Assembly: GCA_016714225.1 (NCBI GenBank)
Contig: JADJNS010000012.1
Span: 253,422 to 317,421 of the forward strand
DNA: 64,000 nt
Source of the DNA: Archangiaceae bacterium
GTDB lineage: Bacteria; Myxococcota; Myxococcia; Myxococcales; Myxococcaceae
Direction: 5' to 3'
Shown here one piece after another: positions 21,142 to 50,195 of the stretch. Under the pieces are notes generated by a model. It was not told the origin of the DNA. It ran no database searches and was given only the letters and a program-made list of their open reading frames with translations. The first letter of the stretch is position 1, and every line of letters begins with the position of its first letter. The translations under genes and the position numbers were made by a program.

Positions 21142-21575
21142 TGGGCTCACGCCACATCGCCCGCGAGCGAGCGCTGCAGGCGCTCTACCAACTCGACGCT
21201 CAGGGCGAAGGGGCGAGCATCAAAGACGCGCTCGACGCCGCGTGGGGCTCGGGTGCCGAGGGCGGCGAGGGGCCACCGGCGGCCGAGACCCGCCAGTTCG
21301 CTCAAGAGCTGGTCGACGGGGTGCGGGGTTTCTTGAAAGAGCTCGACGCCAAGATCGAGCAGCACTCGACGAACTGGCGGGTCGACCGCATGTCGCGCAT
21401 CGATCGCAACGTGCTGCGGCTGGGCGCCTTCGAGCTGATGCACCGGCCCGACGTGCCCAAGAAGGTCGCGCTCAACGAAGCGGTCGAGCTGGGCAAGAAG
21501 TTCGGCAACGAAGAGTCGTCGTCGTTCATCAACGGCCTGCTCGACAAGCTGGCGCAGGGCATCGACAAGCCATGA
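21141..21575 (+). CDS. nusB: transcription antitermination factor NusB
   Basis: 144 aa. ARERALQALYQLD...RIDRNVLRLGAFEL...VALNEAVELGKKFG...FINGLLD. The start overlaps the ribH stop (TGATG). Confidence 0.9.
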   Translation: MGSRHIARERALQALYQLDAQGEGASIKDALDAAWGSGAEGGEGPPAAETRQFAQELVDGVRGFLKELDAKIEQHSTNWRVDRMSRIDRNVLRLGAFELMHRPDVPKKVALNEAVELGKKFGNEESSSFINGLLDKLAQGIDKP

Positions 21576-22036
21576 TTGCCGTCGAGCCGTCGTTGGACTC
21601 GATCGATGCGCTGTCGGGAGTCGACGCGCTCTGCGTGTTCCTCACCGACGACGATCGGCCCCTGCAGGGCATGGCCGGGTACCTCGACTGGCGCATGTGC
21701 GGCGCGCTCTCGCGGGTGCTGCTGGGCGGCTTCTTCAAGGGCGACCGCGGCGAGCAGCTGCTCATGCCGACCAGCGGCGGCATCTCGACCGTCAAGCTCT
21801 TCGCGGTGGGGGCGGGCAGCAGCAAGTCGCTCGACGCCTCGACGCTGGGGCTGTTGCTCGAGAGCTCGGCGCTGATGCTCAAGCGCGCCGGCGTGGGTTC
21901 GGTGGCGCTGTCGCTGCCCAAGTGCGGGCTCGACGACGCGTCGCGCGCCGAGGTGGTGAAGAAGCGGTTTGCGCCGTCGTTCGCTCCGGGCGTCACCACG
22001 GTCTTCGCCGAGAAGAGCCTTCGCGCGTTGCTCTAG
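21572..22036 (+). CDS. stand-alone peptidase-M17 (leucyl aminopeptidase) N-terminal-like domain protein
   Basis: 154 aa. Pattern VDALCVFLTDDD..LQGMAGYLDWRMCGALSRVLLGGFFKGDRGEQLLMP...VKLFAVGAG resembles the M17 N-terminal domain. There is no catalytic domain. ATGA overlap with nusB. Confidence 0.45.
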   Translation: MIAVEPSLDSIDALSGVDALCVFLTDDDRPLQGMAGYLDWRMCGALSRVLLGGFFKGDRGEQLLMPTSGGISTVKLFAVGAGSSKSLDASTLGLLLESSALMLKRAGVGSVALSLPKCGLDDASRAEVVKKRFAPSFAPGVTTVFAEKSLRALL

Positions 22037-22072: not shown

Positions 22073-22471
22073 GTGTTACTGTCGCACCCTTCAGTGCCGG
22101 ACCTTTTCAAAGTCTTGGTGGTCGAGGACTCGAAGGCGACGCGGGAGCTGCTCGCGTCGCTGCTCGAAGGACTGGGCAACCTCGAGGTGGTGACGGTGGT
22201 GAGCGGGTTCGAGGCGCTGAAGGTTCTGCCGCGCCATCGCTTCTCGTTGATCGTCACCGACATCAACATGCCCGACATCAACGGGCTCGAGCTGATCAAC
22301 TTCGTGAAGAAGAACCCGCACTACCGCGAGACCCCGCTGTTCGTGGTCACCACCGAGGGCCGCACGCAAGACCGCGAGCGCGGCATGCAGCTGGGCGCCA
22401 GCGAGTACGTGATCAAGCCGTTCGAGCCCGACGCGTTCTGCGCCCTGGTGAAGAAGTACCTCAAGCTCTAG
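22073..22471 (+). CDS. cheY: CheY-like single-domain response regulator
   Basis: VLVVEDS, LIVTDINMPDINGLEL, VVTTEG, YVIKPF. GTG start at 22073, with an alternative GTG at 22094. Confidence 0.9.
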   Translation: MLLSHPSVPDLFKVLVVEDSKATRELLASLLEGLGNLEVVTVVSGFEALKVLPRHRFSLIVTDINMPDINGLELINFVKKNPHYRETPLFVVTTEGRTQDRERGMQLGASEYVIKPFEPDAFCALVKKYLKL

Positions 22472-22482
22472 ATGACCCGCTG

Positions 22483-24516
22483 ATGAGCGAGAAGAAGCCG
22501 GTCACCGAGTTTCTCGCCGAGGCGACCGAGATCGTCGAGGGTCTGTCGCGCGAGCTGGTGGTGCTCGACGAGCACCGCGGTGAAGAGCCCGAGCCCGATC
22601 GGCTGAACTCGATCTTCCGCGCCGCGCACTCGCTCAAGGGGCTGTCGTCGCTGTTCGGGCACGAGCGCATCACGCGGCTGGCGCACGTGCTCGAAGACGC
22701 GCTCGACGCGCTGCGGCTGGGCAAGGTGATGGCCGACGACGCGCTGATCGACGCGTTCGTCGACGCGGTCGATGCGCTGTCGGGGCTGCTCACCATGGCC
22801 TCTCGCGACGAGAGCGAGGGCCCGGCGGCCGAGCGGGCGGTGGCGCTGGCGCAGCACATCGAGTCGCTGCTCAGCCAGGGGCCGACGCCGGTGGAAGACC
22901 CGCTCAAGCAGCTGGGCCTCGAGCCGTCGGTGCTGCACGTGCTCACCGAGTACGAAGAGCACCGGCTGCGCGAGAACGTGAAGAAGGGCGTCACGCTCTA
23001 CAAGGTGCGCGCGGTCTTCTCTCTCGACGACTTCGACCAGCGCCTGACGGCGCTCACCGCGGCGCTCAAGGCGATCGCCGAGGTGGTGAGCACGCTGCCC
23101 TCGGCCCAGGCCTCGGACGAGAGCCACATCGGGTTCGATCTGCTCACCGCGTGCAAGCAGAGCGCGGCCGAGCTCACCCGCGTGCTCGCGCCGTACGGGG
23201 CGAGCCACGCGCTGATCTCTGCCTCTACCGCGCCGCCGCGGCCCCGCCCGTCGGCGCCGCGCCCCGAGCTGGGCTCGTCTTCAGAGCTCTCGCTGCGCTC
23301 GCTGGCGCAGACGGTGCGCGTCGACATCAGCCGGCTCGACAAGCTGATGGCCGCGGTGGGCGACCTGCTGCTCACCCGGTCGAACATCAAGCGCTTCGCC
23401 GAAGGGGCGCGCGCGGCGGGCCCGGGTGGGCTGCACCCGCTGTGGGCGCAAGAGCTGGCCCGCGAGGCCCGCGCGCTCGAGCGCAAGCTCGACGATCTGC
23501 AGAAGGGCATTCTGGAAGTGCGCATGGTGCCGCTGGGCCAGGTGTTCGATCGGCTGGCGCGGCTGGTGCGGCGGCTCTTGCGCGAGAGCGGCAAGGAGAT
23601 CGACTTCGAGATCTCGGGCGGCGACGTCGAGCTCGACAAGCTGATCGTCGAAGACCTGTCGGACCCGCTGATGCACCTGCTCCGCAACGCCATCGACCAC
23701 GGCATCGAGACGCCCGAGCAGCGCGTCGCGGCGGGCAAGTCGCGGCGCGGCAGGGTGCGGCTGTACGCCACCAGCGAAGGCAACCACGTGAAGATCGAGG
23801 TCGGCGACGACGGCGCCGGTCTCGACGAGGCGCGCATTCGCGACGAGGCCCTCAAGCGCGGGCTGGTCACCGCCACCAAGGCGCCCCAGATGCAGCGGCG
23901 CGAGCTGCTCAACCTGGTGTTCCTGCCCGGGTTCTCGACGCGCAAGCAGGTGAGCGAGCTGTCGGGCCGCGGGGTGGGGCTGGACGTGGTGAAGACCAAC
24001 CTGCAGCGGCTCTCGGGGCTGATCGACATCGTCAGCGAGCCGGGGCAGGGCACCACCTTCGTGCTCACCCTGCCGTTGACGCTGGCGATCATTCGCGCGC
24101 TGGTGGTGCAGGCGTCGGGCCACACCTACGCGGTACCGCTGAACTCGGTGCTCGAGATCGTGGCGGTGCGGCCCAGCGAGCTGCGCACCGTCGAGCACCG
24201 GCAGATGCTGTCGGTGCGGGGGCAGACGGTGCCGTTCGTGCGCCTCTCGCAGCTGTTCAAGCTGCCGCTGGTCGAGGTGCAGCAGCACTACGTGGTGCTG
24301 GTGGGGCTGGCGCAGCACCGCATGGGCCTGGCGGTCGACGCGCTGCTCGGCCAGCAAGACGTGGTCACCAAGCCGCTCTCGGCGCGGCTGCGCGACGTGC
24401 GAGGCTTCGCGGGGGCGACCGATCTCGGTGACCGCCGCGCGGTGCTGGTGCTCGACGTGCCCGCGCTGGTGAGCGAGATGATGCGGCCCGCCGACGCAGG
24501 CATGGGGAACCTCTAG
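22483..24516 (+). CDS. cheA: chemotaxis histidine kinase CheA
   Basis: 677 aa. HPt motif FRAAHSLKGLS, dimerisation region, HATPase (DHGIE...GDDGAGLD...GRGVGLDVV) and a C-terminal CheW-like domain. Confidence 0.93.
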   Translation: MSEKKPVTEFLAEATEIVEGLSRELVVLDEHRGEEPEPDRLNSIFRAAHSLKGLSSLFGHERITRLAHVLEDALDALRLGKVMADDALIDAFVDAVDALSGLLTMASRDESEGPAAERAVALAQHIESLLSQGPTPVEDPLKQLGLEPSVLHVLTEYEEHRLRENVKKGVTLYKVRAVFSLDDFDQRLTALTAALKAIAEVVSTLPSAQASDESHIGFDLLTACKQSAAELTRVLAPYGASHALISASTAPPRPRPSAPRPELGSSSELSLRSLAQTVRVDISRLDKLMAAVGDLLLTRSNIKRFAEGARAAGPGGLHPLWAQELAREARALERKLDDLQKGILEVRMVPLGQVFDRLARLVRRLLRESGKEIDFEISGGDVELDKLIVEDLSDPLMHLLRNAIDHGIETPEQRVAAGKSRRGRVRLYATSEGNHVKIEVGDDGAGLDEARIRDEALKRGLVTATKAPQMQRRELLNLVFLPGFSTRKQVSELSGRGVGLDVVKTNLQRLSGLIDIVSEPGQGTTFVLTLPLTLAIIRALVVQASGHTYAVPLNSVLEIVAVRPSELRTVEHRQMLSVRGQTVPFVRLSQLFKLPLVEVQQHYVVLVGLAQHRMGLAVDALLGQQDVVTKPLSARLRDVRGFAGATDLGDRRAVLVLDVPALVSEMMRPADAGMGNL

Positions 24517-25065
24517 GTGCCCTCGTTCGAGCAGCTGCTCGAGGGGTTTCTCTACCGCGAGGGCGAGCCGGGCCTGCCCGGCCTGCAGTGGTTGGAAGAC
24601 GCTCCGGTGCCCGAGGCCAGCACGGTCGAGGCCCCCCACGAGTACCTCGCCTTTCAGCTCACCGACGAGACGTACGCGGTGCCGATCGAGCGGGTGCGCG
24701 AGATCGTCAAGGTGCCGGTGCTCACCGAGGTGCCGCGCGCCGCGCCCGAGCTGCTCGGGGTGATGAACCTGCGCGGCGAGGTGCTGCCGGTCTACGACGT
24801 GCGGGCGCGGCTGTTGCTCACGCAGCAGGTGAAGCCGGTGGGCGGCCCGGAAGACGTGCCTTCGCGGTCGCGCATCGTGGTGGTGCGCAGCGACGACGGC
24901 GACGCGGGAATACTCGCCGACGCGGTCGAGGGCGTGGCGCGGCTGTTGCCGTCGCTCACCGAGGCGGCTCCGCCGGGCGGCACCCAGCGGCCCTACCTGT
25001 CGGGGCTGAGCCGGCGCGGCGAGCGCCTCTACATTCTCCTCGACGTCGAGCGGGTGCTCGAGTGA
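24517..25065 (+). CDS. cheW: CheW coupling protein (copy 1)
   Basis: 182 aa. YLAFQLTDETYAVPIERVREIV...LLGVMNLRGEVLPVYDVR. The GTG start abuts the cheA stop. Confidence 0.9.
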   Translation: MPSFEQLLEGFLYREGEPGLPGLQWLEDAPVPEASTVEAPHEYLAFQLTDETYAVPIERVREIVKVPVLTEVPRAAPELLGVMNLRGEVLPVYDVRARLLLTQQVKPVGGPEDVPSRSRIVVVRSDDGDAGILADAVEGVARLLPSLTEAAPPGGTQRPYLSGLSRRGERLYILLDVERVLE

Positions 25066-25478
25066 GCGGCAGCGTGCAGCTGTGCGCCTTTCGCGCCGGC
25101 GACGAAGAGCTGGTGGTCGACATCATGCGGGTGCAGGAGATCATCGCCCCGCTGCCGCTGACCGCGGTGCCGCGCTCGCCCAGGGCGATCGAGGGCGTGG
25201 TGAACCTGCGCGGCGCGATCGTCCCGGTCGTCGACGTGCGCAAGCAGCTGGGCCTGGGCGAGCCCAAGCAGGCGCCGCGGCCGCGGCTGATCGTCTGCCG
25301 GGTGGGGCCACACCTGCTCGGGCTGCGCGTCGACGGGGTGTCGACGGTGTTTCGCGCCGAGCGCGAGTCGCTCAAGCCGGCTCCGATGGGGCAGGGCAGC
25401 TCGCCGCACATCATCGGCGTGTGCGCCGCGGGTGGAAAGCTGCGGCTCTTGCTCGACGTGCGCGCGCTGCTGGGCTAG
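25062..25478 (+). CDS. cheW: CheW coupling protein (copy 2)
   Basis: 138 aa. LCAFRAGDEELVVDIMRVQEII...IEGVVNLRGAIVPVVDVR. GTGA overlap with copy 1. Confidence 0.85.
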   Translation: MSGSVQLCAFRAGDEELVVDIMRVQEIIAPLPLTAVPRSPRAIEGVVNLRGAIVPVVDVRKQLGLGEPKQAPRPRLIVCRVGPHLLGLRVDGVSTVFRAERESLKPAPMGQGSSPHIIGVCAAGGKLRLLLDVRALLG

Positions 25479-25491
25479 CGAATCGCACCAG

Positions 25492-26718
25492 ATGATCGAG
25501 GAGCTGCACGACGACCCGGGTGCCGAGGGGCGTTACCAGGCGCTGGCGGGCGCCGATCGCGACGCGCTCGTCTCGGCGCTCTACGACCCCAGCTGGCGCG
25601 TGCGCCGGCACGCCGCCGAGCTCGTCGCCCGCGCCGTCGACGATGCCACCGCGGCGAAGCTCATCGCCGTGCTGGGCGATCGCGACCAGACCGGCGCCCG
25701 CAACGCGGCGACCACCGCGCTGGCGCTGGCCGGCCCGGCGGCACGCGCGCCGCTGCTCGAGCTGCTCGGCCACTCCGACCCCGATCAGCGCAAGCTCGCC
25801 GCCGACATTCTCGGCGAGCGCCGCGAGGCCGACGCGCTCGAGGGCCTCGAGCGCGCGCTGGCCGATGCCGACCCCAACGTGCAGGGCGCGGCGGCCGAAG
25901 CGCTGGGCCGCATCGGCGGGCAGCGCGCCAGCCGCACCCTGATGGGCCTGCTCTCTTCGCGAGAGCCGCTGGTGCGCGCCTGCGCGCTCGAGGCGCTGTT
26001 CGCGCTGAAGAAGCCGCCGCCGCTCTCGCTGCTGGTGCCGCTGTTGCCCTCGAAGCAGGCGTTTCGGCTGGTGGGCCTCATCTTCCACCCCTCGGCGAAC
26101 GCGCTGGTCAGCCGCGCGCTCGAGCAGGCGTCGACGCGCGACGCGGCGCTCGCGGCGCTGGGCATGGAAGGGCGCGCCTGGCCACACGACGCCGAGGCGA
26201 TGCTGCGCGCCTCGCTGAAGGTCTCGCCCGACGTGCAGACCTGGCTGGCCCGCATGCTCAAGAGCGACGACCGCGCGCTGCGGGTGGGGGCGATGAACGC
26301 GGTGGCCGCGCTCAAGGCCCACGCGCTCGCGCCCGCGGTGGCCGAGGCGGTGGGGGACGGCTCGGTGGCCGAGGCGGCCTCGCGCGCGCTCACCCGCCTG
26401 GGCCTGTACGGCGCGCTGGCCCTGGTCGAGGGCGAAGTGCCGCCGGTGGTGTCGATGAGCGCAGAAGCGCGCGCGGTGGCGGGCGAGGCGATCATCAGGG
26501 TGGGCGAGCCCCGGCTGGTGCCGGCGCTCGAGCGGTTGCTCGGCTGCTCAGACCCCGAGCTGGCCGAGGTGGCGGTGCGGGCGCTGGGCCGCTGCCGCAC
26601 CCCCGCGGCGATCGTGCCGCTGCTCTCGGCGCTCGAAGACGACGCGCTGGCCTCGGCCGCGGCGCGCGCGCTGGCGCGAATCGGGCGTCGTTTCAGACCG
26701 AGGTGGGGTTCGCGATGA
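25492..26718 (+). CDS. HEAT-repeat (PBS-lyase-like) protein, 408 aa
   Basis: Reiterated ~31-aa units of the type D..WRVRRHAAELVARA / DPDQRKLAADILGE / DPNVQGAAAEALGRIG / EPLVRACALEAL. Confidence 0.7.
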   Translation: MIEELHDDPGAEGRYQALAGADRDALVSALYDPSWRVRRHAAELVARAVDDATAAKLIAVLGDRDQTGARNAATTALALAGPAARAPLLELLGHSDPDQRKLAADILGERREADALEGLERALADADPNVQGAAAEALGRIGGQRASRTLMGLLSSREPLVRACALEALFALKKPPPLSLLVPLLPSKQAFRLVGLIFHPSANALVSRALEQASTRDAALAALGMEGRAWPHDAEAMLRASLKVSPDVQTWLARMLKSDDRALRVGAMNAVAALKAHALAPAVAEAVGDGSVAEAASRALTRLGLYGALALVEGEVPPVVSMSAEARAVAGEAIIRVGEPRLVPALERLLGCSDPELAEVAVRALGRCRTPAAIVPLLSALEDDALASAAARALARIGRRFRPRWGSR

Positions 26719-27416
26719 GCGCGCGCACGCTCGAGCCGCACGTGCTGCGCACCTGGGTGCAGGTCGACCCGGGCGCGGCGCGCGGGGCGGTGCGCGAGGC
26801 GGCACGCGATACCGACGACGGCCTGCGGGCGGCCGCGGCAGAGAGCGCGTGGGCGTTGCCTGAAGACGAGGCCGGCGAGGCGCTGGGGCGGGCGCTGACC
26901 GACGAGGCGGCGGTGGTGCGCCGCGCGGCGGCCCGCGCGCTGCCGCGGGTGGCGAGCGCGGCGGGGCTGCTGGCCCGGGCGCTGGTCGACCGCGAGGCCT
27001 CGGTGGTGGCCGCGGCCTGCGACGCGGCGGCCGAGCTGAAGGTGCCGGCGGTGAAGGCGCGGCTCGAAGAGCTGCTGGGGGCCGGCGACGGCTTCGTGGT
27101 GCTGGCGGCGCTGCAGGGCTTGAGCGCGCTGGGGGCGGTCGACCCGGTGCAGGCCGAGCGGGCGCTGGGGCACGCCGACCCCGAGGTGGTGAAGGCGGCG
27201 CTGGCGCTGTTCGCCGAGCGGCCGGGCACCGCGGTGGCCGCCATCGCGCTGCTGCAGCACCCGCGGTGGGACGTGCGGGCCGCGGCCGCGCGCGCGCTCG
27301 AGGTGGCGGGCACCGCGGCGGCGGTGGCGGCACTGCGGCACGCGCTGGCCCGCGAGCAAGACGCGATGGCGCGGCAGATCATCGCGGCGGCGGCGGCGCG
27401 GCTGGGAGACCTCTGA
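26715..27416 (+). CDS. HEAT-repeat protein, 233 aa
   Basis: ATGA overlap with the preceding HEAT gene. Units AAVVRRAAARALP, EASVVAAACDAAAEL, DPEVVKAALALF, RWDVRAAAARALE. An alternative GTG lies at 26703. Confidence 0.65.
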   Translation: MSARTLEPHVLRTWVQVDPGAARGAVREAARDTDDGLRAAAAESAWALPEDEAGEALGRALTDEAAVVRRAAARALPRVASAAGLLARALVDREASVVAAACDAAAELKVPAVKARLEELLGAGDGFVVLAALQGLSALGAVDPVQAERALGHADPEVVKAALALFAERPGTAVAAIALLQHPRWDVRAAAARALEVAGTAAAVAALRHALAREQDAMARQIIAAAAARLGDL

Positions 27417-27426
27417 CGGTGGCGCG

Positions 27427-28275
27427 ATGATCGACGAGCCGCGGCTGACCATGACCGCCGAGCAGTTTCGCCTGCTCTCGGACCTGGTGCACGGCGCGAG
27501 CGGGCTGGCGATGCGCGAAGACTTCAAGTTCGTCGCCGAGCGCCGCCTGCTGCCGCGGGTCGAGGCGCTGGGGCTGTCGGACTTCGGGGCCTACCAGCGC
27601 TACCTGCGCTTCGACGCGCGCGGCCGAGAAGAGCTCGAGCTGGCGTGCGAGCTGCTCTTGCCGCACGAGACGTACTTCTTTCGCGAGCCCAACCAGCTCG
27701 AGTGCTTCGTGAACGAGATCGTACCCCGGCTGGTCGAGCAGCACCGCGGCCGGCGGCGCTTGAGGCTCTGGTCGGCCGGCTGCAGCACCGGCGAAGAGCC
27801 GTACACGCTGGCCATGCTGCTGGAAGAGACCGGCCGCTTCGAGGGCTGGGACGTGCAGGTTCACGGCACCGACCTGAGCCGCCGGGTCTTGAGCACCGCG
27901 CGCAAGGCAGAGTACGCGCCGAGCGCGCTGCGCTCGACCTCGCCCGAGCGCAAGCTGCGTCACTTCGAGGTGGTGCCGGGAGGCAAGGTGCGGGTCAAGG
28001 CACCCCTGCGCGCGCAGGTGTCGTTCAGCCACCTGAACCTGATCGTGCCCGAGGCGGCCGACCTGCTCCCGTTCATGGACGTGGTGTTCTGCCGCAACGT
28101 GCTCATCTACTTCGACCTCGAGGCGCGGCGGCGCGTCATCTCGTCGCTCTACCGGCGCATGCAGCCGGGCGCGTGGCTCTTGCTGGGGCATTCTGAGAGC
28201 CTGCTCACCGTCACCACCGACTTCGAGATCGTGCAGCTCGACGGCGATCTGGTCTACCGGGTGGGGCAGTCGTGA
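27427..28275 (+). CDS. cheR: chemotaxis protein methyltransferase CheR
   Basis: 282 aa. ETYFFREP, RLWSAGCSTGEEPYTLAMLL, VFCRNVLIYF. Confidence 0.92.
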   Translation: MIDEPRLTMTAEQFRLLSDLVHGASGLAMREDFKFVAERRLLPRVEALGLSDFGAYQRYLRFDARGREELELACELLLPHETYFFREPNQLECFVNEIVPRLVEQHRGRRRLRLWSAGCSTGEEPYTLAMLLEETGRFEGWDVQVHGTDLSRRVLSTARKAEYAPSALRSTSPERKLRHFEVVPGGKVRVKAPLRAQVSFSHLNLIVPEAADLLPFMDVVFCRNVLIYFDLEARRRVISSLYRRMQPGAWLLLGHSESLLTVTTDFEIVQLDGDLVYRVGQS

Positions 28276-29279
28276 GGCGCAGCGCGCCGGTGCGGGTGCT
28301 GGTGATCGACGACTCGGCCTCGAACCGGCGGGCGATCACCCAGATTCTCGAGTCGGCGCCCGACGTCGAGGTGATCGATCGCGCGCAAGACGGCGCCGAG
28401 GGGCTCGAGAAGGCGCGGCGGCTCAAGCCCGACCTCATCACCCTCGACCTCGAGATGCCCCGGCTCGACGGCTTCGCGTTCTTGCGGCTGCTCCAGCAGG
28501 TGGCGCCGACCCCGGTGATCGTCATCTCGTCGTACGCGCACCGCAGCGACGTGTTCAAGGCGCTCGAGCTGGGCGCCTTCGACTTCGTGGCCAAGCCGAG
28601 CCGGGCCGCCGGCCTCGACACGGTGCGGGTCGACCTGCTCGCCAAGGTGCAGGCGGTGCGGCAGGTGCAGAAGCGTGGCGGAAACCTGAGCGAGGTGCGG
28701 CGCGGCTCAGAGCCCACCCTGCTCGCGGTGGGCGCCTCGACCGGCGGGCCGCAGGCGGTGCACCAGCTGCTGATGGGCCTCAAGGGCACCTCGGCCTGCG
28801 TGCTGGTGGCGCAGCACATGCCGCCGCGGTTCACCCGGGCGTTCGCCGAGCGGCTGGAGAAGGCGTGGGGCCAGAGCGTGACCGAGGCGCGCGGCGGCGA
28901 GCGCCCGCAGGCGGGGTGTGCCTTCGTGGCGCCGGGGGGCAAGCACCTGGTGGTGGTGCGAACCGAGAAGGGCGCGCTCGAGCTGCAGGTGCTCGAGGCC
29001 GGCAGCGCCGACAAGCACGTGCCGTCGATCGACCGGCTGTTCGAGAGCGTGGCGCGCTGTGGCGGGGCGGCGGCGCACGCGGTGGTGCTGACCGGCATGG
29101 GCCATGACGGCGCTCAAGGGGTGGGGGCGATCGCCAGGGCCGGCGGGGTGGTGTGGGCCGAGTCGGAGCAGACTGCGGTGATACCCGGCATGCCACAGGC
29201 GGCGATGAAGACCGGGCACGTCACCTGGGTGCTGCCGCTGCACGAGCTCACCCAAGAGCTGGCCAAGTCGGTGGGCTGA
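28272..29279 (+). CDS. cheB: protein-glutamate methylesterase CheB (receiver + esterase)
   Basis: 335 aa. VLVIDDS...LITLDLEMPRLDG receiver. Esterase Ser GASTGGPQAV, plus His and GMGHDG. GTGA overlap with cheR. Confidence 0.92.
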   Translation: MRRSAPVRVLVIDDSASNRRAITQILESAPDVEVIDRAQDGAEGLEKARRLKPDLITLDLEMPRLDGFAFLRLLQQVAPTPVIVISSYAHRSDVFKALELGAFDFVAKPSRAAGLDTVRVDLLAKVQAVRQVQKRGGNLSEVRRGSEPTLLAVGASTGGPQAVHQLLMGLKGTSACVLVAQHMPPRFTRAFAERLEKAWGQSVTEARGGERPQAGCAFVAPGGKHLVVVRTEKGALELQVLEAGSADKHVPSIDRLFESVARCGGAAAHAVVLTGMGHDGAQGVGAIARAGGVVWAESEQTAVIPGMPQAAMKTGHVTWVLPLHELTQELAKSVG

Positions 29280-29303
29280 AGTGGTAGCTTCTCGCCCGCC
29301 AAG

Positions 29304-29675
29304 ATGAGTCTTCGCGCGCTGGTGGTCGACGATTCGCTGCCCTTGAGGCGCAGCGTGATGTACGCGCTGCAGCGGCTGGGCGACGTGGTGTGCATCGAGG
29401 CCGGCGACGGCGCCGAGGCGATCAAGAAGCTGGCCGCCGGGCCGTACGACATCGTGCTCACCGACATCAACATGCCGCTCCTCGATGGGCTCAAGCTCAT
29501 CAGCCACATTCGCGGCGAGCCGCAGATCTCGAAGCTGCCAATCGTGGTCATCACCACCGAGGCGGCCGAGGCCGATCGTGCGCGCGCGCTGAAGCTCGGC
29601 GCCGACGCCTACCTGGTCAAGCCGGTGAAGGCGCAAGAAGTGCTCGACGCGGTCGCCAAGCTGCTCAACCGATGA
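29304..29675 (+). CDS. cheY: CheY-like single-domain response regulator (second copy)
   Basis: 123 aa. ALVVDDS, IVLTDINMPLLDG, VVITTEA, YLVKPV. Confidence 0.9.
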   Translation: MSLRALVVDDSLPLRRSVMYALQRLGDVVCIEAGDGAEAIKKLAAGPYDIVLTDINMPLLDGLKLISHIRGEPQISKLPIVVITTEAAEADRARALKLGADAYLVKPVKAQEVLDAVAKLLNR

Positions 29676-31606
29676 GGCTGCTCGCGCTCGTGGTGGTGGG
29701 GCGGGCCGCGGTCGCGCTGGCCGGCCCGCTCGCCGAGGTGTGGCCGTACCAGACCAAGCGGCTCGACGCCTCGACGCTCGAGTACTCGTATGATCTCACC
29801 GCGCTCAAGCAGGGCGGCGGCACGCCCGACGCCAAGTCGGAGAACGGCGAAGCGGCGGTGGCCGCGTTTCTGAAGGGCCTGCCCCGCGAGGTGAAGCTCA
29901 AGGTGAAGGGCGGGGGGCTCTTGTACGTGTCGGGTGCGCGCGGCATCGAGCAGGCGCCCCTGGCCACCAGCTTCACCACCGTGCCCGACGGTCAGCTCGC
30001 CTCTGATGACCCGCTGCGGCGAAGGCCTGCGAGCCGCATGCGCCCGGCGCTCGACCCCGACGAGCCCAAGCTCTTGCCCGCGGCCGAGATGGCGCTGTGG
30101 CGGGCGCGGCGCATCGAAGACGGGGCGCTGGCGGCGGCGGCGCTCGACACCGACCGGCTGCTCAAGGCCTGGCTCACCCAGGTCTTCAACGCGGTGGTGG
30201 CGCGGGCCAACCACGCCGACGGCGACGATCGCGACGGGGCCATTCTGCTGGGCGGCCGGGTGGCGGTGGCGCTCTCGTGCCTCGACGCGGCGAAACTGCC
30301 GGCGGCGCCGCTGATGGTGAACGAGGCGCGCGCGCAGCTCGACGAGCTGAGCCACGACGAGAAAGTGCCGCCGCCGCGCAGCTACTGGGAGTGGACCCCC
30401 GAGCTGCAGTGCGCGTTCAAGCGCTGGCAGCTCTTGGGGCTCAGCTTCCCCGCGTCGCGCGCCGGCTACTCTGCGGGTCTGGTGCTGCTCTCGCTGGTGA
30501 AAGACCCGCGGCTGAAGACCAGTTGGCTGAAGGTGCGTGGGCGGCGCGACGCGCTGTTCGGGGGGCCGGCGGTCGAGCCGCTGCAAGAGTACCTGGCCAA
30601 GGCCGGAGGAGACCCCGACGCCGCGCTCGACGACATGATGGCGACCATCGATCGGCAGGGGCCCACGGTGCCCCCGGTGCTGGCGTCGCCGCGGGCTCCG
30701 TTCGGTGAGTTCTTGAACAGCCTGCAGGGAGCCGAGCGGGCCCAGGCGATCGACGAGCTGTTCGCGGCGGTGGGTGAAGGGCGGGTCAAGCCGCCCATCG
30801 AGACCACCGCGTCGGTCGAGCCGCTGCGGCAGGCGGCGCTGGCGGCGTTCGCCCTGGCCGAGCCACCCCAGGGGCTGCAGTTCGACGCCGACTGGCGCGA
30901 CCGGCTGAGCGGCGCGTTCAGCGCGCTGCAGGGCGCGGGGCACGAGGCGAGAGAGAGCCGGCTCGAGGCGTCGCCGCGCGAGGTGCTGAAGAGCGAGCTC
31001 AAGGTGGTGCTGCAGGTGCCGCCGTCGCTCGAGGTCGAGCCGCTGCCCGAGGCGTTCAAGCGGGCGTCTGACGCGTCGGCGCGGCTGGCCGCGGTGTTGA
31101 CCGCCGAGGGGCTGACGGCGATGACCGCGCTCGACCCCGAAGGGCTGCGCGGTGGGGTAGCGGTACCCGAGCTCAAGCGCTTCGCGTCGGTGCTGGCGGG
31201 GCTGGCGGTGATCTCGTCGCGCGGCGCCGTCGAGACGCCCGACGTGGCGAACGCGCGGCGGTTTCTCGCCACCTGGCGCGCCGACCCGGTGCTGGCCCGA
31301 GACGTGCGGTTCGCTGCCGCGCACGCGGTGGCCTACGAGGGGCTGCGCACCCACTCGGTGATCGCCGGCGTGGCGCGTCGCGAGCTGGCGGTGCAGTTCG
31401 CCGAAGCCCCGACGGTCGAGGGCGCGGGCGGGGTGGCAGGGCTGACCTTCGATACCCGCGCCGAGCAGCGCTACCTGGTGCCGGTGCTGTACACGGTGAG
31501 CTACCGGGCCAAGGTGAGCGAGGCGCCGCTCAAGTTCGCGCCGCTGCGCAAGGCGATCGACGCCGCGAACCGCGAGCCGCTGCAGATACCCGGCGCGCTG
31601 CAGTAG
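29672..31606 (+). CDS. exported 644-aa protein of unknown function (possibly DUF3160-like)
   Basis: The ATG overlaps the cheY stop (ATGA). Signal peptide MRLLALVVVGRAAVALAGP. Segment PPPRSYWEWTPELQCAFKRWQLLG resembles the PRGHYT..ELKRYFRAMMW motif I recall from DUF3160. No coiled-coil or MCP signature. Confidence 0.6.
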   Translation: MRLLALVVVGRAAVALAGPLAEVWPYQTKRLDASTLEYSYDLTALKQGGGTPDAKSENGEAAVAAFLKGLPREVKLKVKGGGLLYVSGARGIEQAPLATSFTTVPDGQLASDDPLRRRPASRMRPALDPDEPKLLPAAEMALWRARRIEDGALAAAALDTDRLLKAWLTQVFNAVVARANHADGDDRDGAILLGGRVAVALSCLDAAKLPAAPLMVNEARAQLDELSHDEKVPPPRSYWEWTPELQCAFKRWQLLGLSFPASRAGYSAGLVLLSLVKDPRLKTSWLKVRGRRDALFGGPAVEPLQEYLAKAGGDPDAALDDMMATIDRQGPTVPPVLASPRAPFGEFLNSLQGAERAQAIDELFAAVGEGRVKPPIETTASVEPLRQAALAAFALAEPPQGLQFDADWRDRLSGAFSALQGAGHEARESRLEASPREVLKSELKVVLQVPPSLEVEPLPEAFKRASDASARLAAVLTAEGLTAMTALDPEGLRGGVAVPELKRFASVLAGLAVISSRGAVETPDVANARRFLATWRADPVLARDVRFAAAHAVAYEGLRTHSVIAGVARRELAVQFAEAPTVEGAGGVAGLTFDTRAEQRYLVPVLYTVSYRAKVSEAPLKFAPLRKAIDAANREPLQIPGALQ

Positions 31607-34312: not shown

Positions 34313-35711
<1,399 letters not shown>

Positions 35712-35806: not shown

Positions 35807-38800
35807 TTACAGCGCCGCGGCCTGCTGCTTGCCCTCTTCCCAGTTGATGAGGCCGGCGATGCGGCGGGCGAGCTCGGCGGCCTGCTTCGACACCGCGTGG
35901 GCCTCGAAGCGCTTGGCGACCTTGGCCAGGTTCAGCATCTGCCGCGCCTGGAAGTAGAGGTCTCCGCTGCGTGAAGCGGCGGCGGCGGCCTCTTTGAAGC
36001 AGCGGGCGGCCTCTTCCGACTCCTTCGCCTGCACGTGCAGCGCGCCCATGTTGGCCAGCACGCGCGCCTCGGCGTAGGGGAAGGCGGTCTTTCGCCACGC
36101 CTGCAGCGCGCTGCCGTAGAGCTGCTTGGCGGCGGTCACGTCTTTCTGCGCCAGCAGCACCCCGGCCAAGCGGGTCTCGACGCGCGCGCGGAAGTCGATC
36201 TCTGAGTGCCAGCGGGCCAGCTCTTGCGCCGCGTCGGCGTTGGTGAGCGCCTGGCGAAACGCATTGGCCGCGCCCTTCAGGTCGCCCTCGGCCTCGCACG
36301 CCTCGGCCCGCTCGGCCCACACCAGCTGCACCAGCGCGGTGCCCTGCGCGCGGCGCAGCGCCAGCTCGAGCGCCTCTGACGCCTTGGCGCGCCGCGCCTC
36401 GCTGCGCAGCACCCGCGCCATCGACAGGCACAGCTCGCCGCTCTCGATGTTCTTCGCGGTGGCCAGCGCCTGGCCCTCGTCGACCAGCGCACGGGCGAGC
36501 AGCGGCTCACCGGTGGCCACCGCAGTGGCGGCGGCGCGGGCCAGGGTCTCGACCCGGGCGCGCGCCACCTCGAGCGGCGCCTGGGGGCTCTCGAGCATCA
36601 CCTTGAGCGCGTCGCTCCAGCCGCGCAGCGCCTGCAGCACTTCGCGGGGGGCGCGGCGCTTGAGCGCGCTCTCGACCACGCTGCGCCACAGCTGCAGCGC
36701 GCGGGTAGTGTCTTTCGCGGCGGTGAAGTGCTCGGCGATGCGCGCGGCGTCAGGCTGCACCCCGGCGGCGCGGGCGGCGTCGATCAGCACCGCGGCGAGG
36801 CGGGTGTGCAGCTCGGGCCGCCGCGGCGAGGGCATCGACAGCCCGACCCGCGCGTAGCGATCGGAGACCACCGACCAGCGCCGGCCGCCCATCGCACGCA
36901 CCAGCCGGCTGGCGACCAGGCGCTGGTACGCGCTCTGCGGGGTCTGGGGCTGCACCGCGTTGAGCACCGCCCCGTCGATCGAGTCGCCCGCCAGACAGCA
37001 GGTCTCGAACAGCCGCAGTGCGTCGGGCCACAGCGCCTTCACCCGCTCTGCGGCCAGCTCGGCGTCGTCGTAGCCGGGCGGCTCGGTGGCCAGCACGTAC
37101 GCGCCGCTCACGAAGCGCAGCTGGCCGCGATCGGCGAGCAGGTGCAGCCAGTCGATCATCAGGCCGGGCAGCCCGCGGCCGCGGCGGTGCACCGTCTCGA
37201 TGAGCTTCTCGCTCACCTGGGCGCCGCCGAGCCAGGCGCTGATCATCGCGGCGGCCTCGGGGCTCTGCAGCGGCGGCAGCTCGAGGGTGGGCACCTTCTG
37301 GAACCGCTCGGCGGCGAAGGCGGGGTCCGACAGGCCCACGGTGAGCTCGCGCTGCACCGGGCGCGACGACATCTCGCGAAACGCGTCGACGGTGTACGGG
37401 TCCATCGCCTCGAGCCCGTCGAAGATGAGCAGCATCTTGCGGCCCACTGCGCCGAGGTTGAGCACCGCGCGCAGGGCGTAGACCGCCTGCCCCGGGGTGA
37501 AGGGCTGCGGCACGTGCCGAACCCCGGCGATCACCAGCGCGGCCTCGAGCTCGGGCGGCGGCAGCTTGAGCGCCTCGAGCGCCTGCGGCAGCCGCTGTAC
37601 CCGCTGCTCCTTGGGCACGCCACACACGCTGCACAGCAGCTCGGCGAGCCCGGCGTAGGGCAGGGTGCGGGTCGAGCCGAGCGCGCGCGCGATGCCCACC
37701 ACCGCCTGTTGGTGTCGCCCGCGCACCGAGAGCTCTTGCGCCACGGTGGTGCGGCCCGAGCCCGACTCGCCGGTGACCACCACCGGCGCCACGATGCCCT
37801 GCGTCAGGCTGGTGAGCCGCTTGTCGAGCGCCGAGAGCACCGCGTCGCGGCCATAGAGGGTGGTGACGTTGTGCAGCACCGGCCGCCGCTCGCCCACCTC
37901 GACCACCTCGGGCCCGGCCTCGGCGACGGTGACCACGTCTTGCACCTCGAGGGCCATCTGCCGGTCGGCGACGATCTTCCCCGCGCCGGTCTTGGCGGCG
38001 AGGGTTCGGGCACGCAGCGCCAGCTCGCCCTCGAGCGGCTGGTCGGTCTCGGGAATCGAGATCTTGCCGAACACCGCCGCGGCGCGCAGCGAAGCGCCGG
38101 GCACCTCGTCGGCCACCGCCTCGCGCATCTGCAGCGCGGCGTAGAGCGCGGCCACCCCGGGCACCAGCGCGTCTTCGCCCTGGAAGAGCAGGGTGAGCCC
38201 GTCTTCGTCGAGGGCATCGACGATGCCGTCGTGCTCGAGGCCGACGGTGAGCGCGCGACCCAGGGCCAGCGCGCGGGCGCCGGTCTCGGGCGGAGCCCGC
38301 AGCAGCTCGACGTGCAGCATCACCAGCTTGCGAGTGCCGGGCTCGAGGCCCAGGCGCTGGGCGGCGAGGCGCTGGCGCAGCTGCGGCGCGAGGGGCACCT
38401 TGAGCGCGTCGAGCGCGGCCTCGAGGCGGTGGGCCGCTTCGGCCGGCGCGGCGACCGGGTCGCTGCGCAGCGGCTCGAGCTGCGCGGCGGGCAGGCGGCC
38501 GGTGTCGAAGGCGAAGAACGAGCTCACCTCGGCCTTCACCGGCGCGGGCACGCTCACCGGAGCGGGAGGCGCGGCCAGCGCCGCCGGCGGGGGCCAGTGG
38601 TCATCGCTCGCCGCGGTGCCGGGCACCGCCTCGGCGGGCGGCGGCCACGCCTCGGCGGCGGCCGCGGGCAGCGCGGTGTCGGGCGGCGGCCAGTCTTCGA
38701 ACGCGCCGGGTATCGGCACCGAGCGCTTCACGCTCTCGCGCAGGGCCAGCGCCACCTCTTTCACGTTCTGGAAGCGGTGGGTGCGGTCTTTCGCCAGCAT

Positions 38801-39604
38801 CTTGAGCACCGCCTCGCAGAGCGCGGGGCTCAGCTCGCTGCGGAAGGTTGCGGGAGACGGCGGCGCGTCGCGCAGCTGCATCGACATGATGCGCTGCATC
38901 GAGTCGGCGATGAACGGGGGGCGCCCGGTGAGCAGCTCGAACAGCACGCAGCCCAGGGCGTAGATGTCGGTGCGGGAGTCGAGCGGGTCGGCCAACGCCT
39001 GCTCGGGCGCGAGGTAGGCGGGCGTGCCCATCACCATGCCGGTCTGGGTGACCGGCGCTCCCGCCTGCGCTTGCGTGTCGGCCGCCCGCGCGATGCCGAA
39101 GTCGAGAATCTTGGCCACCTCGCTGCCGTCTCGGCGCTTGCCCAAGATGATGTTCGGCGGCTTGAGGTCGCGGTGAATGATGCCCACCCCGTGCGCCTCG
39201 TCGAGGCCTTCGCACACCTGGCAGACCAGCTCGACCGCGCGCTCGGGCGCGAGCGGCCCGTCGTTGCGCACCAGCACGTCGAGGGTGGTGCCCTGCACGA
39301 ACTCCATCGCCAGAAACGGCACGCCCGCCGAGGTGCGGCCGAAGTCGAAGACGCGCACGATGTGCTGGCTCTCGAGCTGGCTGACCAGCTCGGCCTCGCG
39401 CTGAAACCGCGTCCACATCTCGGGGTCGGCGGCGAGGCTGCGCCTGAGCAGCTTGAGCGCGATGGGGCGCTTCAAGAAGACGTGCGCGGCCCGGTACACG
39501 TCGCCCATGCCGCCGGTGGCGATGTGGGCTTCGATCTGGAAGCGGTTGTCGAGCAGCGTGCCGGGCTCGAGGCGCTCTTCGGCCGGCCGGGCGGCGGCGG
39601 GCAT
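35807..39604 (-). CDS. Ser/Thr protein kinase with degenerate cyclase-like region, STAND/AAA ATPase-like domain and TPR repeats
   Basis: 1265 aa. Kinase motifs GGMGDVYRA, IALK, HRDLKPPNIIL, DFGIA, APE. Central P-loop-like VVTGESGSGRTT. C-terminal TPR-like helical repeats. Confidence 0.85.
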   Translation of the reverse strand: MPAAARPAEERLEPGTLLDNRFQIEAHIATGGMGDVYRAAHVFLKRPIALKLLRRSLAADPEMWTRFQREAELVSQLESQHIVRVFDFGRTSAGVPFLAMEFVQGTTLDVLVRNDGPLAPERAVELVCQVCEGLDEAHGVGIIHRDLKPPNIILGKRRDGSEVAKILDFGIARAADTQAQAGAPVTQTGMVMGTPAYLAPEQALADPLDSRTDIYALGCVLFELLTGRPPFIADSMQRIMSMQLRDAPPSPATFRSELSPALCEAVLKMLAKDRTHRFQNVKEVALALRESVKRSVPIPGAFEDWPPPDTALPAAAAEAWPPPAEAVPGTAASDDHWPPPAALAAPPAPVSVPAPVKAEVSSFFAFDTGRLPAAQLEPLRSDPVAAPAEAAHRLEAALDALKVPLAPQLRQRLAAQRLGLEPGTRKLVMLHVELLRAPPETGARALALGRALTVGLEHDGIVDALDEDGLTLLFQGEDALVPGVAALYAALQMREAVADEVPGASLRAAAVFGKISIPETDQPLEGELALRARTLAAKTGAGKIVADRQMALEVQDVVTVAEAGPEVVEVGERRPVLHNVTTLYGRDAVLSALDKRLTSLTQGIVAPVVVTGESGSGRTTVAQELSVRGRHQQAVVGIARALGSTRTLPYAGLAELLCSVCGVPKEQRVQRLPQALEALKLPPPELEAALVIAGVRHVPQPFTPGQAVYALRAVLNLGAVGRKMLLIFDGLEAMDPYTVDAFREMSSRPVQRELTVGLSDPAFAAERFQKVPTLELPPLQSPEAAAMISAWLGGAQVSEKLIETVHRRGRGLPGLMIDWLHLLADRGQLRFVSGAYVLATEPPGYDDAELAAERVKALWPDALRLFETCCLAGDSIDGAVLNAVQPQTPQSAYQRLVASRLVRAMGGRRWSVVSDRYARVGLSMPSPRRPELHTRLAAVLIDAARAAGVQPDAARIAEHFTAAKDTTRALQLWRSVVESALKRRAPREVLQALRGWSDALKVMLESPQAPLEVARARVETLARAAATAVATGEPLLARALVDEGQALATAKNIESGELCLSMARVLRSEARRAKASEALELALRRAQGTALVQLVWAERAEACEAEGDLKGAANAFRQALTNADAAQELARWHSEIDFRARVETRLAGVLLAQKDVTAAKQLYGSALQAWRKTAFPYAEARVLANMGALHVQAKESEEAARCFKEAAAAASRSGDLYFQARQMLNLAKVAKRFEAHAVSKQAAELARRIAGLINWEEGKQQAAAL

Positions 39605-42009: not shown

Positions 42010-43395
42010 ATGAGCGACGCCCGGCAGCCCTCTGACGCACTGGTCTTCTTCGGTGCCACCGGCGATCTCGCGTACAAGAAAATCTTCCCCGCGCTGCAGG
42101 CGCTGGTGCGCCGGGGCCGGCTCGACTGCCCGGTGGTGGGGGTGGCGAAGTCGGGGTGGAGCCTGGCGCAGCTGGTCGACCGTGCGCGCGCCAGCGTCAC
42201 CGAGTACGGCGGGCTCGACGCCGCGGCGTTCGAGAAGCTGGTGAAGCAGCTGCGCTACGTCGACGGTGACTACCAAGACCCGGCCACCTTCGTGCAGGTG
42301 AAGCAGCAGCTGAGGCCGGCGAAGCGGCCGGCGCACTACCTGGCGATACCGCCCAGCATGTTCGCCACCGTGGCGCAGAACCTCACCCAGGCCGGGCTCG
42401 CGCAAGACGCGCGGGTGATCGTCGAGAAGCCGTTCGGGAGAGATCTGGGGTCGGCCAGAGCGCTCAACCGCACGCTGCACGGCTGCTTCCCCGAAGAGTC
42501 GATCTTCCGCATCGACCATTACCTGGGCAAAGAGGCGGTGCAGAACATTCTCTACTTCCGCTTCGCCAACGCGTTTCTCGAGCCGGTCTTCAACCGGCAC
42601 TACGTCGAGAACGTGCAGATCACCCTGGCCGAGAGCTTCGGGGTCAGCGGGCGGGGCAAGCTCTACGAAGAGACCGGGGTGATTCGCGACGTCATTCAGA
42701 ACCACCTGCTCCAGGTGGTGAGCTACCTGGCGATGGAGCCGCCCACCTCGATGTACGCCGAGGCGATTCGCGACGAGCAGGCGAAGGTGCTGCGCAACAT
42801 CGCTCCGCTCGAGCCCAAGGCGCTGGTGCGCGGGCAGTTTCAGGGCTACCGCGACGAGCCCGGGGTGGCGAGAGACTCGAGCGTGCCCACCTACGCGGCG
42901 CTGAAGTTCTCGGTCGAGTCGTGGCGCTGGGCCGGGGTGCCCTTCTACGTGCGCGCGGGAAAGTCGCTGGCCAAGACGGTGACCGAGGTCTTCGTCGAGC
43001 TGAAGAACGCCCCGGGGGTGGTGTTCAGCGAGCCGCCCGCGCCGATGGGCAACTACGTGCGGCTGCGCGTCACGCCCGAGGTGGAGATCGCCATGGGAGC
43101 GCGGGCCAAGGTGCCCGGCGAGCGCATGGTGGGTCAGCCGGTCGAGCTGAAGGTGGTCGAGACCGCAGGGCAGGGCGCGGGCGGGCGCATGGAGGCCTAC
43201 GAGCGGCTGCTCGGCGACGCGATGCTGGGCGACGCCACCCTGTTCGCGCGGCAAGACGTGGTCGAGGCCGCGTGGGCGATCGTCGACCCGGTGCTCGCCG
43301 CGCCCGGCCCGCTGCACCCGTATGCGCCGGGGAGCTGGGGCCCGCCCGAAGCCGATCGGCTCGTCACCGAGATCGGCGGCTGGAACACGCGCTGG
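42010..43395 (+). CDS. zwf: glucose-6-phosphate dehydrogenase (3' end undefined: no in-frame stop until 45075)
   Basis: [33 protein letters not shown]-terminal ...[25 protein letters not shown] is where Zwf proteins normally end. GC3 drops after ~43430. Confidence 0.85.
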
Positions 43396-43638
43396 AGGAG
43401 CGCAGAGTCGAGGAGCGAGCAGGTGGGCCCGCGCACTGCTGTCGTTCGCCAAGGCCCAGCGCGGATCTCCATCGTATTTGGCGCGCGCTGCCGCTCGAAG
43501 CCTGGGGAGGAGGCGCTGCGTCTTCGTGAAGAGCCACGGGGCTCACCCTGCTCGATTTCGCACTCTGGTCGACTCGCTCAGCATGAACCGCTCGAGCGCA
43601 AATTCTGCGCGTTGCCGAAGTTTCTCCCGCATGGTCAC

Positions 43639-45075
43639 GTGACGAACGTGACGTGCCGTCTGTGGCTGCTTCTCGGCGGGTGTTTGCTCGGCTGCCGCGG
43701 CATGGCGCCCGAGCCCGAAGACGCTGGTCGCGATGCGGGTCGCGACGACGGCGGCGCGGCGGGTCAGCCTTCAGGGTGGGACGACGGCGTGAAGCTGAGC
43801 CCGGCGACCGACCTCGACCCCGCCCCGACGGTGGTCGAGGTCTCGCTCGAGGCGCGGGTGGCCAGCGTCGAGCTCGACGGCCACCCCACCGCGATGTGGA
43901 CCTACCAGGGCACCGTGCCCGGGCCGCTGATTCGCGCGCGCGTCGGCGACACGGTGGTGGTGCACTTCAAGAACAGCCTGCCCCAGCCGAGCAGCGTGCA
44001 CTGGCACGGCGTGAAGGTGCCCGCGTCGATGGACGGCCTCGACCCGGTTCCGGCGGGCGGCACGTTCGACTACCGCTTCGTGGTCCCCGAGGCGGGCACG
44101 TTCTGGTACCACCCCCACCTTCAGTCGAGCGCGCAGGTCGGCTACGGCCTGTACGGCGCGCTGGTGGTGTCGGACCCTGGCGAGGCGTTCTTCGGCGACC
44201 CGCTGGTGCTGGTGCTGAGCGACGCCAGCGTGGTCGACGCAGGCGTGCTGGCGCCGGGTGACCAGAACGGCTGGTTCGGCGATTACTTCGGCCGCGAGGG
44301 TGACCTGCTGCTGGTGAACGGCCGGGTGCGCCCCACCCTTCGGGCGCGCGCTGGAGTGCCCCAGCGGTGGCAGGTGGTGAACGCCAGCCGCTCGCGCTAC
44401 TGGGTGCTCGAGGTGCCGGGCGCCACGGTGCGCCGCATCGGGGGCGACGTCGGCCTGGTCGGCACGGTGCAGCCCGGGCAGAACGTGCTGCTGACTCCGG
44501 GCGAGCGCGCCGAGCTGTGGGTCGAGGCGCTGCAGCCGGGCAAGAGGCTGCCGGTGCTGTGGCACGACTCCGACCGGTTTCACATCGGGTCGACGCTGCC
44601 CGACCACACCGTGGCGTGGCTCGACGTGCAGCGCGACGCGAAGGTCGACGGGGCGCGCGAGCCGTCGGGCACGCTGCGCGACGTCTCGCCGCTCGACACC
44701 GCCGATGCCGGCCGGCGCCGCTTCGAGCTGATGGACGTGCCCGACGCCGGCCTGCTGGGCATCAACGGCAAGGCGTTCGACCCCGGTGACCCGCCGGTGA
44801 TGGTGAAGCTCGGCACGACCGAGCTGTGGGAGATCGAAAACTCGACCCCGTACGACCACACCTTTCACCTGCACGGCTATTCGTTTCAGCCGCTCGACGT
44901 AGGGGGGCAGCCCTGGCCCACGTTGGAGTGGAAAGACTCGGTCAACGTGCCGGCGAAGCAGAAGCTGCACCTCGCGGTGCGCTTCGAAGACCGCCCCGGC
45001 ATGTGGATGCTGCACTGCCACATTCTCGACCACGTCGAGCTGGGCATGATGGCGATGCTGCACGTGATGCCCTGA
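43639..45075 (+). CDS. three-domain multicopper oxidase lipoprotein
   Basis: GTG at 43639 or 43648. Lipobox-like [10 protein letters not shown]. Copper motifs [26 protein letters not shown]. Confidence 0.85.

Positions 45076-48425: not shown

Positions 48426-48435
<10 letters not shown>
48211..48435 (+). CDS. small lipoprotein, function unknown
   Basis: 74 aa. GTG start. Lipobox LFAIVAC. Confidence 0.45.

Positions 48436-50195
<1,760 letters not shown>

Follow-up and report, generated by a model that had tools for sequence, protein, structure and literature searches.

A Che8-type chemosensory operon without a receptor gene, and its HEAT-repeat protein, in an Archangiaceae bacterium

The chemosensory (che) operon described here occupies positions 22,073 to 31,606 of a 64,000-nucleotide (nt) stretch of DNA from an Archangiaceae bacterium (hereafter the window, meaning the whole of that stretch), and contains genes for CheA, CheW, CheR, CheB and CheY proteins but none for a methyl-accepting chemotaxis protein (MCP), the receptor. 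In Escherichia coli, tsr, trg and aer lie outside the che operons. As a rule, bacteria with several receptors encode them apart from cheA, cheW, cheR and cheB (PMC2577667, PMC3945109); compared with such ordinary orphan-receptor systems, a cluster without any receptor gene, as in the window, is rarer but documented. Passages of Tran et al. 2008 (PMC2577667) describe a 'beta group' of che clusters in which cheA, cheW, cheR and cheB are present and mcp is absent, place its members in Geobacter, Stigmatella, Anaeromyxobacter 2CP-C, Plesiocystis and Myxococcus xanthus DK1622, and mention preliminary evidence for control of the extracellular matrix in Geobacter sulfurreducens. Thomas et al. 2008 (PMC2330069) state that 2CP-C and G. 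sulfurreducens share the conserved che8 cluster of M. xanthus, and Sharma et al. 2018 (PMC6194562) write of Corallococcus coralloides that its Che8 'does not have an associated MCP'. In the M. xanthus table of Moine et al. 2014 (PMC3945109) an MCP is listed for every che cluster but che8, there being no Mcp8, and 13 of the 21 MCPs of that species are orphans.

The nearest system with a receptor of its own is Che7, the sister of Che8 in the Che protein tree; Mcp7, McpB and McpJ have been assigned to Che7/Che8 by phylogeny (Moine et al., PMC3945109), and in M. xanthus the orphan regulator MXAN_4468 is a common target of CheA8 and CheA7 (2022 study, PMC9040617). Che7 resembles the operon in the window in having a gene for a HEAT/PBS-lyase-like protein before cheR and in the domain layout of CheA (683 amino acids (aa) in Che7, 677 aa in the window), but differs in possessing a soluble receptor, Mcp7, and in having one CheW and one CheY. 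Its HEAT protein, Cpc7, is a phosphorylation-sensitive target of CheY7, according to passages in PMC11514114 and PMC9040617 that cite Darnell 2014.

The operon in the window is an ortholog of the M. xanthus Che8 operon, the delta-proteobacterial 'beta-group' che cluster. The G+C content of the window is approximately 70%, and its genes were called by codon-position GC frame analysis together with Pfam. The genes of the operon, preceded by their upstream neighbour, are as follows (identities are to the M. xanthus locus L057):

21572-22036, + strand: M17N-like protein, 154 aa, between nusB and cheY1; Pfam PF02789, E=3.8e-9
22073-22471, + strand: cheY1 (CheY8b ortholog), single-domain response regulator; Pfam Response_reg, E=7e-26; 70% identity
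22483-24516, + strand: cheA (CheA8 ortholog), 677 aa; Pfam; NCBIfam CheA, E=4e-116; 52-67% identity
24517-25065, + strand: cheW1 (CheW8b ortholog), 182 aa; Pfam CheW, E=6.7e-33; 53% identity
25062-25478, + strand: cheW2 (CheW8a ortholog), 138 aa; Pfam CheW, E=2.9e-33
25492-27416, + strand: HEAT-repeat gene, about 645 aa, frameshifted; Pfam HEAT_2, E=2.6e-43 and 3.3e-16 on its two open reading frames (ORFs)
27427-28275, + strand: cheR (CheR8 ortholog), 282 aa, N-terminal helical and S-adenosylmethionine-binding domains; Pfam CheR, E=9e-56, and CheR_N
28272-29279, + strand: cheB (CheB8 ortholog), 335 aa; Pfam receiver and methylesterase domains; above the NCBIfam CheB cutoff
29304-29675, + strand: cheY2 (CheY8a ortholog), 123 aa; Pfam; 67% identity
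29672-31606, + strand: X644, exported protein, 644 aa; no match in Pfam or NCBIfam

A first-pass annotation, made from the letters of the window alone, had read this stretch as ten collinear plus-strand genes in the order CheY-CheA-CheW-CheW-HEAT-HEAT-CheR-CheB-CheY-644 aa (22073-31606). Pfam agrees with its domain calls and coordinates, but the genes number nine, since the two HEAT ORFs are one gene. The overlaps it reported between genes are real at cheW1/cheW2 (GTGA, 25062-25065), at cheR/cheB (28272-28275) and at cheY2/X644 (ATGA, 29672-29675), each of 4 nt; that between the HEAT ORFs is a by-product of the frameshift. Pfam finds Hpt, dimerisation, HATPase_c and CheW-like P5 domains in CheA, which is without a receiver domain. 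The kinase core has the canonical make-up, with P1, P3, P4 and P5 in CheA and at least one CheW alongside. The operon also shares the layout of the Che7 type, in which a HEAT/PBS-lyase-like gene adjoins cheR and the CheYs are single-domain proteins.

Orthology was established by comparison with related loci. One genome per GTDB species was scanned with an alignment of the HEAT protein, which returned 80 loci, and two more were added (one metagenome look-up). By their record titles, nearly all of the 80 belong to Myxococcaceae, to Archangiaceae or more broadly to myxobacteria, while two titles are discordant; the set includes M. xanthus, Corallococcus, Pyxidicoccus, Hyalangium, Vitiosangium and Archangium. 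The order ribH-nusB-M17N-cheY-cheA-cheW-cheW-HEAT-cheR-cheB is found in every locus, of the 80 and the 2, that extends far enough, and cheY2 follows cheB in most, being undetected in about ten loci that reach well past cheB. The metagenomic relative L001 has the full series, ribE-ribBA-ribH-nusB-M17N-cheY-cheA-cheW-cheW-HEAT(647 aa)-cheR-cheB-cheY-X644. Across the complete comparative set of 86 loci the cheW-HEAT-cheR arrangement is strictly conserved.

The link to Che8 comes from the M. xanthus locus L057, whose ORFs of 862, 188, 290, 345 and 126 aa match exactly the published lengths of CheA8, CheW8b, CheR8, CheB8 and CheY8a (MXAN_4758, 4757, 4753, 4752 and 4751; PMC3945109), and to which the proteins of the window are 41-70% identical. 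The published gene list of Che8 (MXAN_4751-4759) reads CheY8a, CheB8, CheR8, two unnamed genes, CheW8a, CheW8b, CheA8 and CheY8b, and the window agrees with it in gene order, in the ribH-nusB upstream flank and in the lack of an mcp. The two differ in the length of CheA, where M. xanthus CheA8 has a linker insertion (862 aa, against 677 aa in the window), in that the Myxococcus clade has an additional ORF for a 125-aa membrane protein ahead of the HEAT gene and no X644, and in the frameshift of the HEAT gene in the window.

More distant loci preserve the same core. Short contigs encoding HEAT proteins of 34-38% identity also show the order cheW-HEAT-cheR-cheB-cheY, and the most distant HEAT matches led to Anaeromyxobacteraceae. 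In Anaeromyxobacter dehalogenans 2CP-C the cluster reads nusB-(192 aa)-cheA-ATPase-cheW-cheW-HEAT-cheR-cheB-cheY, followed by asnS, leuS and lptE; the window has these three downstream as well, and the rib/nusB upstream flank is common to both. Anaeromyxobacter has the CheW-CheW-HEAT-CheR-CheB-CheY core and the chromosomal neighbours of the window, but differs in an ATPase gene inserted between cheA and cheW and in having no upstream cheY.

No receptor gene was found in any of these settings. Neither PF00015 nor HAMP gave a Pfam match in the ten operon ORFs or in any other called gene of the 64-kb window, and regular expressions for the invariant motifs of the MCP hairpin tip had zero occurrences in its six frames. 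A further six-frame test used tblastn with the Tsr signalling domain of E. coli as the probe, a sequence that agrees with annotated tsr at 100% identity. At E<1e-6 this probe picks up MCPs annotated in 1,899 plasmid records of alpha-, beta- and gamma-proteobacterial origin. In the 83 sequences searched, namely the window plus 82 related loci, no match was better than E=2, and the window itself gave none at E<=10. Four further loci were likewise MCP-negative, no MCPsignal domain lies within 10 kb on either side of the Che8-like cluster of A. dehalogenans 2CP-C, and the precomputed Pfam labels of L001 do not include MCPsignal. The first-pass observation that no ORF across the operon has the hallmarks of an MCP is therefore borne out by Pfam, motifs and probe alike, and extends to the called genes of the 64 kb; the comparison with syntenic operons that it had called for shows mcp to be absent from the cluster in every relative examined, Anaeromyxobacter included. 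Recent loss or misassembly of an mcp in this organism was considered and rejected, because no related locus carries one.

The annotation had implied that such an arrangement was new. Clusters of the Che8/beta-group type without an MCP have been in print since 2008 (PMC2577667, PMC2330069, PMC6194562), and the missing mcp is a documented feature and not a discovery; the window adds one more ortholog. As the cluster type has been catalogued since 2007-2008, one further example changes little.

Several genes occur in particular relatives within or beside the conserved order. A 125-aa ORF, predicted to encode a multi-pass membrane protein, lies between cheW8a and the HEAT gene in Myxococcus, Pyxidicoccus and Corallococcus loci (L057 9594-9971); its G+C content at third codon positions is coding-like, its conservation is limited to that clade, the window lacks it, and it is probably MXAN_4755. 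An AAA-type ATPase gene of A. dehalogenans 2CP-C (L086 7719-8543), between cheA and cheW, has no counterpart in the window or in Myxococcaceae. Archangium-type loci contain two minus-strand genes in an insert of approximately 3 kb between cheB and cheY2 (L009 13875-16939; L036), which, read by eye, encode a 745-aa membrane protein with CHASE2 and class III nucleotide cyclase-like regions and a 300-aa secreted protein. This insert was considered as a hidden receptor and rejected on account of that content; the MCP probe is negative there.

The enzymes of adaptation keep their catalytic motifs. CheB retains the serine of GASTGG, the histidine of QHMP, the aspartate of GMGHDG (GMGxDG) and the receiver aspartates, and was aligned to 6ymz, with 1a2o among the listed structure matches. 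Residues 14-279 of the 282 in CheR align to Pseudomonas aeruginosa CheR1 (5xly) with conserved motifs, and Salmonella CheR (1af7) is among the listed matches. On these motifs both enzymes look catalytically intact, and both CheYs keep the phospho-acceptor Asp and the conserved Thr and Lys, as read from their sequences. CheR and CheB are not known to act on anything but MCP signalling domains. Intact CheR and CheB together with two CheWs imply a methyl-accepting partner.

The HEAT-repeat gene, which occupies the place between cheW and cheR, is a single gene. The first-pass annotation had placed two HEAT genes there, at 25492-26718 (HEAT1) and 26715-27416 (HEAT2), but these are the halves of one gene of about 645 aa in which a 1-nt deletion shifts the frame. 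With HEAT1 as the query, more than 100 homologs were recovered, and almost every one measures 644-660 aa. In tblastn, the alignment of the relative P0004 (647 aa, 74% identical) runs in frame +3 as far as residue 403 and then switches to frame +2, and DNA alignment with the 74%-identical relative shows a single C missing between window positions 26683 and 26684 (ATCGG-GCGTCG). The ATGA overlap of HEAT1 and HEAT2 results from this frameshift. The gene is an uninterrupted ORF in 75 of 76 assessable loci, with the window alone being split. The essential gene asnS (34313-35708, + strand) is also split between two frames, having lost 2 nt in a GC-rich context similar to that of the HEAT site (GACGCGCAG -> GA--CGCAG near 35097, relative to a 91-93%-identical homolog); the HEAT frameshift is therefore probably an assembly error in the contig of this metagenome-assembled genome (MAG), and assembly indels are the likeliest explanation of both.

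An AlphaFold (AF2) model of P0004 predicts one unbroken alpha-solenoid of about 21 helix pairs with a pLDDT (predicted local distance difference test) of 95, and the frameshift position maps to its middle. The model matches generic solenoids only, namely alphaRep, CAND1, karyopherins and the PP2A A subunit, and in NCBIfam the protein has weak similarity to NblB and CpcE, below cutoff. The HEAT protein does not resemble an MCP: it has no PF00015 match, its predicted fold is a solenoid instead of a coiled-coil hairpin, and the methylation consensus of MCPs is found in 0 of 21 homologs, among which no adjacent Glu/Gln pair is conserved.

Taken together, these observations make it probable that the operon specifies a canonical Che phosphorelay whose receptor or receptors are encoded elsewhere, the HEAT solenoid being more likely an output or scaffold partner of a CheY. 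In such a pathway CheW1, CheW2 and CheA would join at least one orphan MCP in a signalling complex; phosphoryl groups would pass from CheA to both single-domain CheYs and to the receiver domain of CheB; and adaptation would come about as CheR methylates the distant MCP and CheB demethylates it. The HEAT solenoid is probably not a receptor surrogate; by analogy with Cpc7 and CheY7, it more likely pairs with one of the CheYs, as an output component or as a scaffold. The first-pass annotation had left a choice between a receptor encoded elsewhere and a pathway with a non-canonical methylation target or scaffold. The former is favoured by the relatives without mcp, by intact CheR and CheB and by precedents for orphan MCPs; the latter gained no positive support.

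One such precedent comes from Geobacter. The orphan MCP EsnA (GSU1704) of G. sulfurreducens binds EsnB (CheW, GSU2220) and EsnC (CheA, GSU2222), and shares a phenotype with this CheW and CheA, from which it is encoded apart (Chan et al. 2017, PMC5585712). The order GSU2222-2221-2220, CheA-ATPase-CheW, is that of the Che8-like cluster of Anaeromyxobacter, and on this ground the esnB/esnC cluster is probably the beta-group cluster of G. sulfurreducens. It apparently differs from the operon in the window in having the ATPase gene between cheA and cheW and no upstream cheY.

Certain points weigh against a canonical pathway with a distant receptor. The analysis covers 64 kb of this genome, and the cognate orphan MCP of the organism is one that we infer. 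In no species has the receptor or methylation substrate of Che8 been identified experimentally, and the functions of Che8 'have not yet been identified' (PMC9040617). The interaction between CheY and the HEAT protein, like the location and identity of the receptor, is inferred, in its case by analogy only. Finally, the placement of GSU2220-2222 in the beta group derives from gene order and not from the papers themselves.

Among the alternatives, the one that survives best is that the kinase module mainly serves orphan regulators and that CheR and CheB act on the receptors of another Che system, perhaps in arrays shared with Che7, with no dedicated receptor. The common action of CheA8 and CheA7 on MXAN_4468 (PMC9040617), the phylogenetic grouping of Che7 with Che8 and the single set of MCPs assigned to both (PMC3945109) are in keeping with it, but it is in effect a variant of the canonical pathway, still needing MCPs encoded elsewhere, and arrays shared with Che7 would presuppose a Che7 system in this MAG. 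We regard it as unlikely.

Less likely again is a non-canonical pathway in which the HEAT solenoid stands in the place of the receptor, as a scaffold for CheW and CheA or as the substrate of CheR and CheB, and no MCP is needed. Every relative, including Anaeromyxobacter and those with HEAT proteins of only 34-38% identity, carries a HEAT gene between cheW and cheR, an mcp has never been found in the cluster, and experiments have not identified a Che8 receptor (PMC9040617). The predicted fold, however, is an ordinary solenoid like those of karyopherins and PP2A-A, and the established activity of CheR and CheB is confined to MCP signalling domains. Since neither a methylation consensus nor a conserved Glu/Gln pair was found, the HEAT protein is unlikely to be the usual kind of CheR/CheB substrate; a scaffold role is unaffected by that result. 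In Che7, moreover, Cpc7 coexists with Mcp7 and, in the passages cited above, serves as a CheY target and not as a receptor. Were the HEAT protein to replace the receptor, Che8/beta-group pathways would be the first chemosensory pathways to work without an MCP.

Least likely of all is a decaying operon, with a genuine HEAT pseudogene in this organism and a pathway on its way to loss: the frameshift is present, and the ATG of the second ORF overlaps the stop of the first so that two half-proteins are possible, but all other genes are intact with their catalytic motifs conserved, the similar deletion in asnS on the same contig points to assembly indels, and the HEAT gene is intact in every other assessable locus.

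The invariable HEAT-repeat gene would be an obvious handle on Che8, through CheY-HEAT binding and CheW-MCP pairing, and the set of 86 loci, the high-confidence HEAT model and the exported accessory protein could guide experiments on the system.

That accessory protein, X644, is encoded by the last gene of the operon, which is translationally coupled to cheY2 and overlaps its end (ATGA). The first-pass annotation had called the 644-aa product exported, with which a conserved signal peptide of AxA type, present in 24 of 24 aligned homologs, agrees. Its AF2 model (pLDDT 86, predicted template modelling score (pTM) 0.85) has a mixed alpha/beta fold, for which a search against the PDB gave no match (best E=0.09, TM about 0.1), and ten distant relatives have no informative Pfam domain. 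It too is unlike an MCP, given this model and the lack of PF00015. In 29 loci the gene follows cheY2 at a distance of -9 to +59 nt, while 31 others (Myxococcus, Corallococcus and Archangium sensu stricto) lack it; it is therefore a clade-specific accessory gene outside the conserved Che8 core. A profile search returned 459 unannotated representatives at E<=1e-3, which indicates that X644 belongs to a wider uncharacterised family. A weaker variant of the unlikely reading in which the HEAT protein replaces the receptor is that X644 might act as a clade-specific periplasmic partner of the Che8 pathway.

The flanks of the operon are housekeeping in character. Upstream are ribE, ribBA, ribH, nusB and the Peptidase_M17_N-like protein; downstream are genes for unknown proteins, asnS, a Ser/Thr kinase, an esterase, zwf, a multicopper oxidase, leuS, lptE and a sigma-54 activator. 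A scan for promoters and terminators over 20.5-32.9 kb gave a signal at background level only. The 154-aa M17N-like protein has no other domain than this one. Wherever a locus extends far enough upstream, its gene separates nusB from the che operon, and in Anaeromyxobacter a relative of 192 aa precedes cheA; the gene may be co-transcribed with the che operon, and is counted here as a neighbour and not as a member of the system. Further downstream, zwf (glucose-6-phosphate dehydrogenase) and the multicopper oxidase, which has a lipoprotein-like start, share one stop-free frame (42010-45075, + strand); these are probably two genes joined by a chance open linker, while a further indel artefact could also account for the frame. 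Signalling genes nearby include one for a Ser/Thr kinase of 1,265 aa with AAA_16 and TPR domains (35807-39604, - strand), and another for the sigma-54 activator, which carries an N-terminal PilZ domain (48426-50177, - strand).

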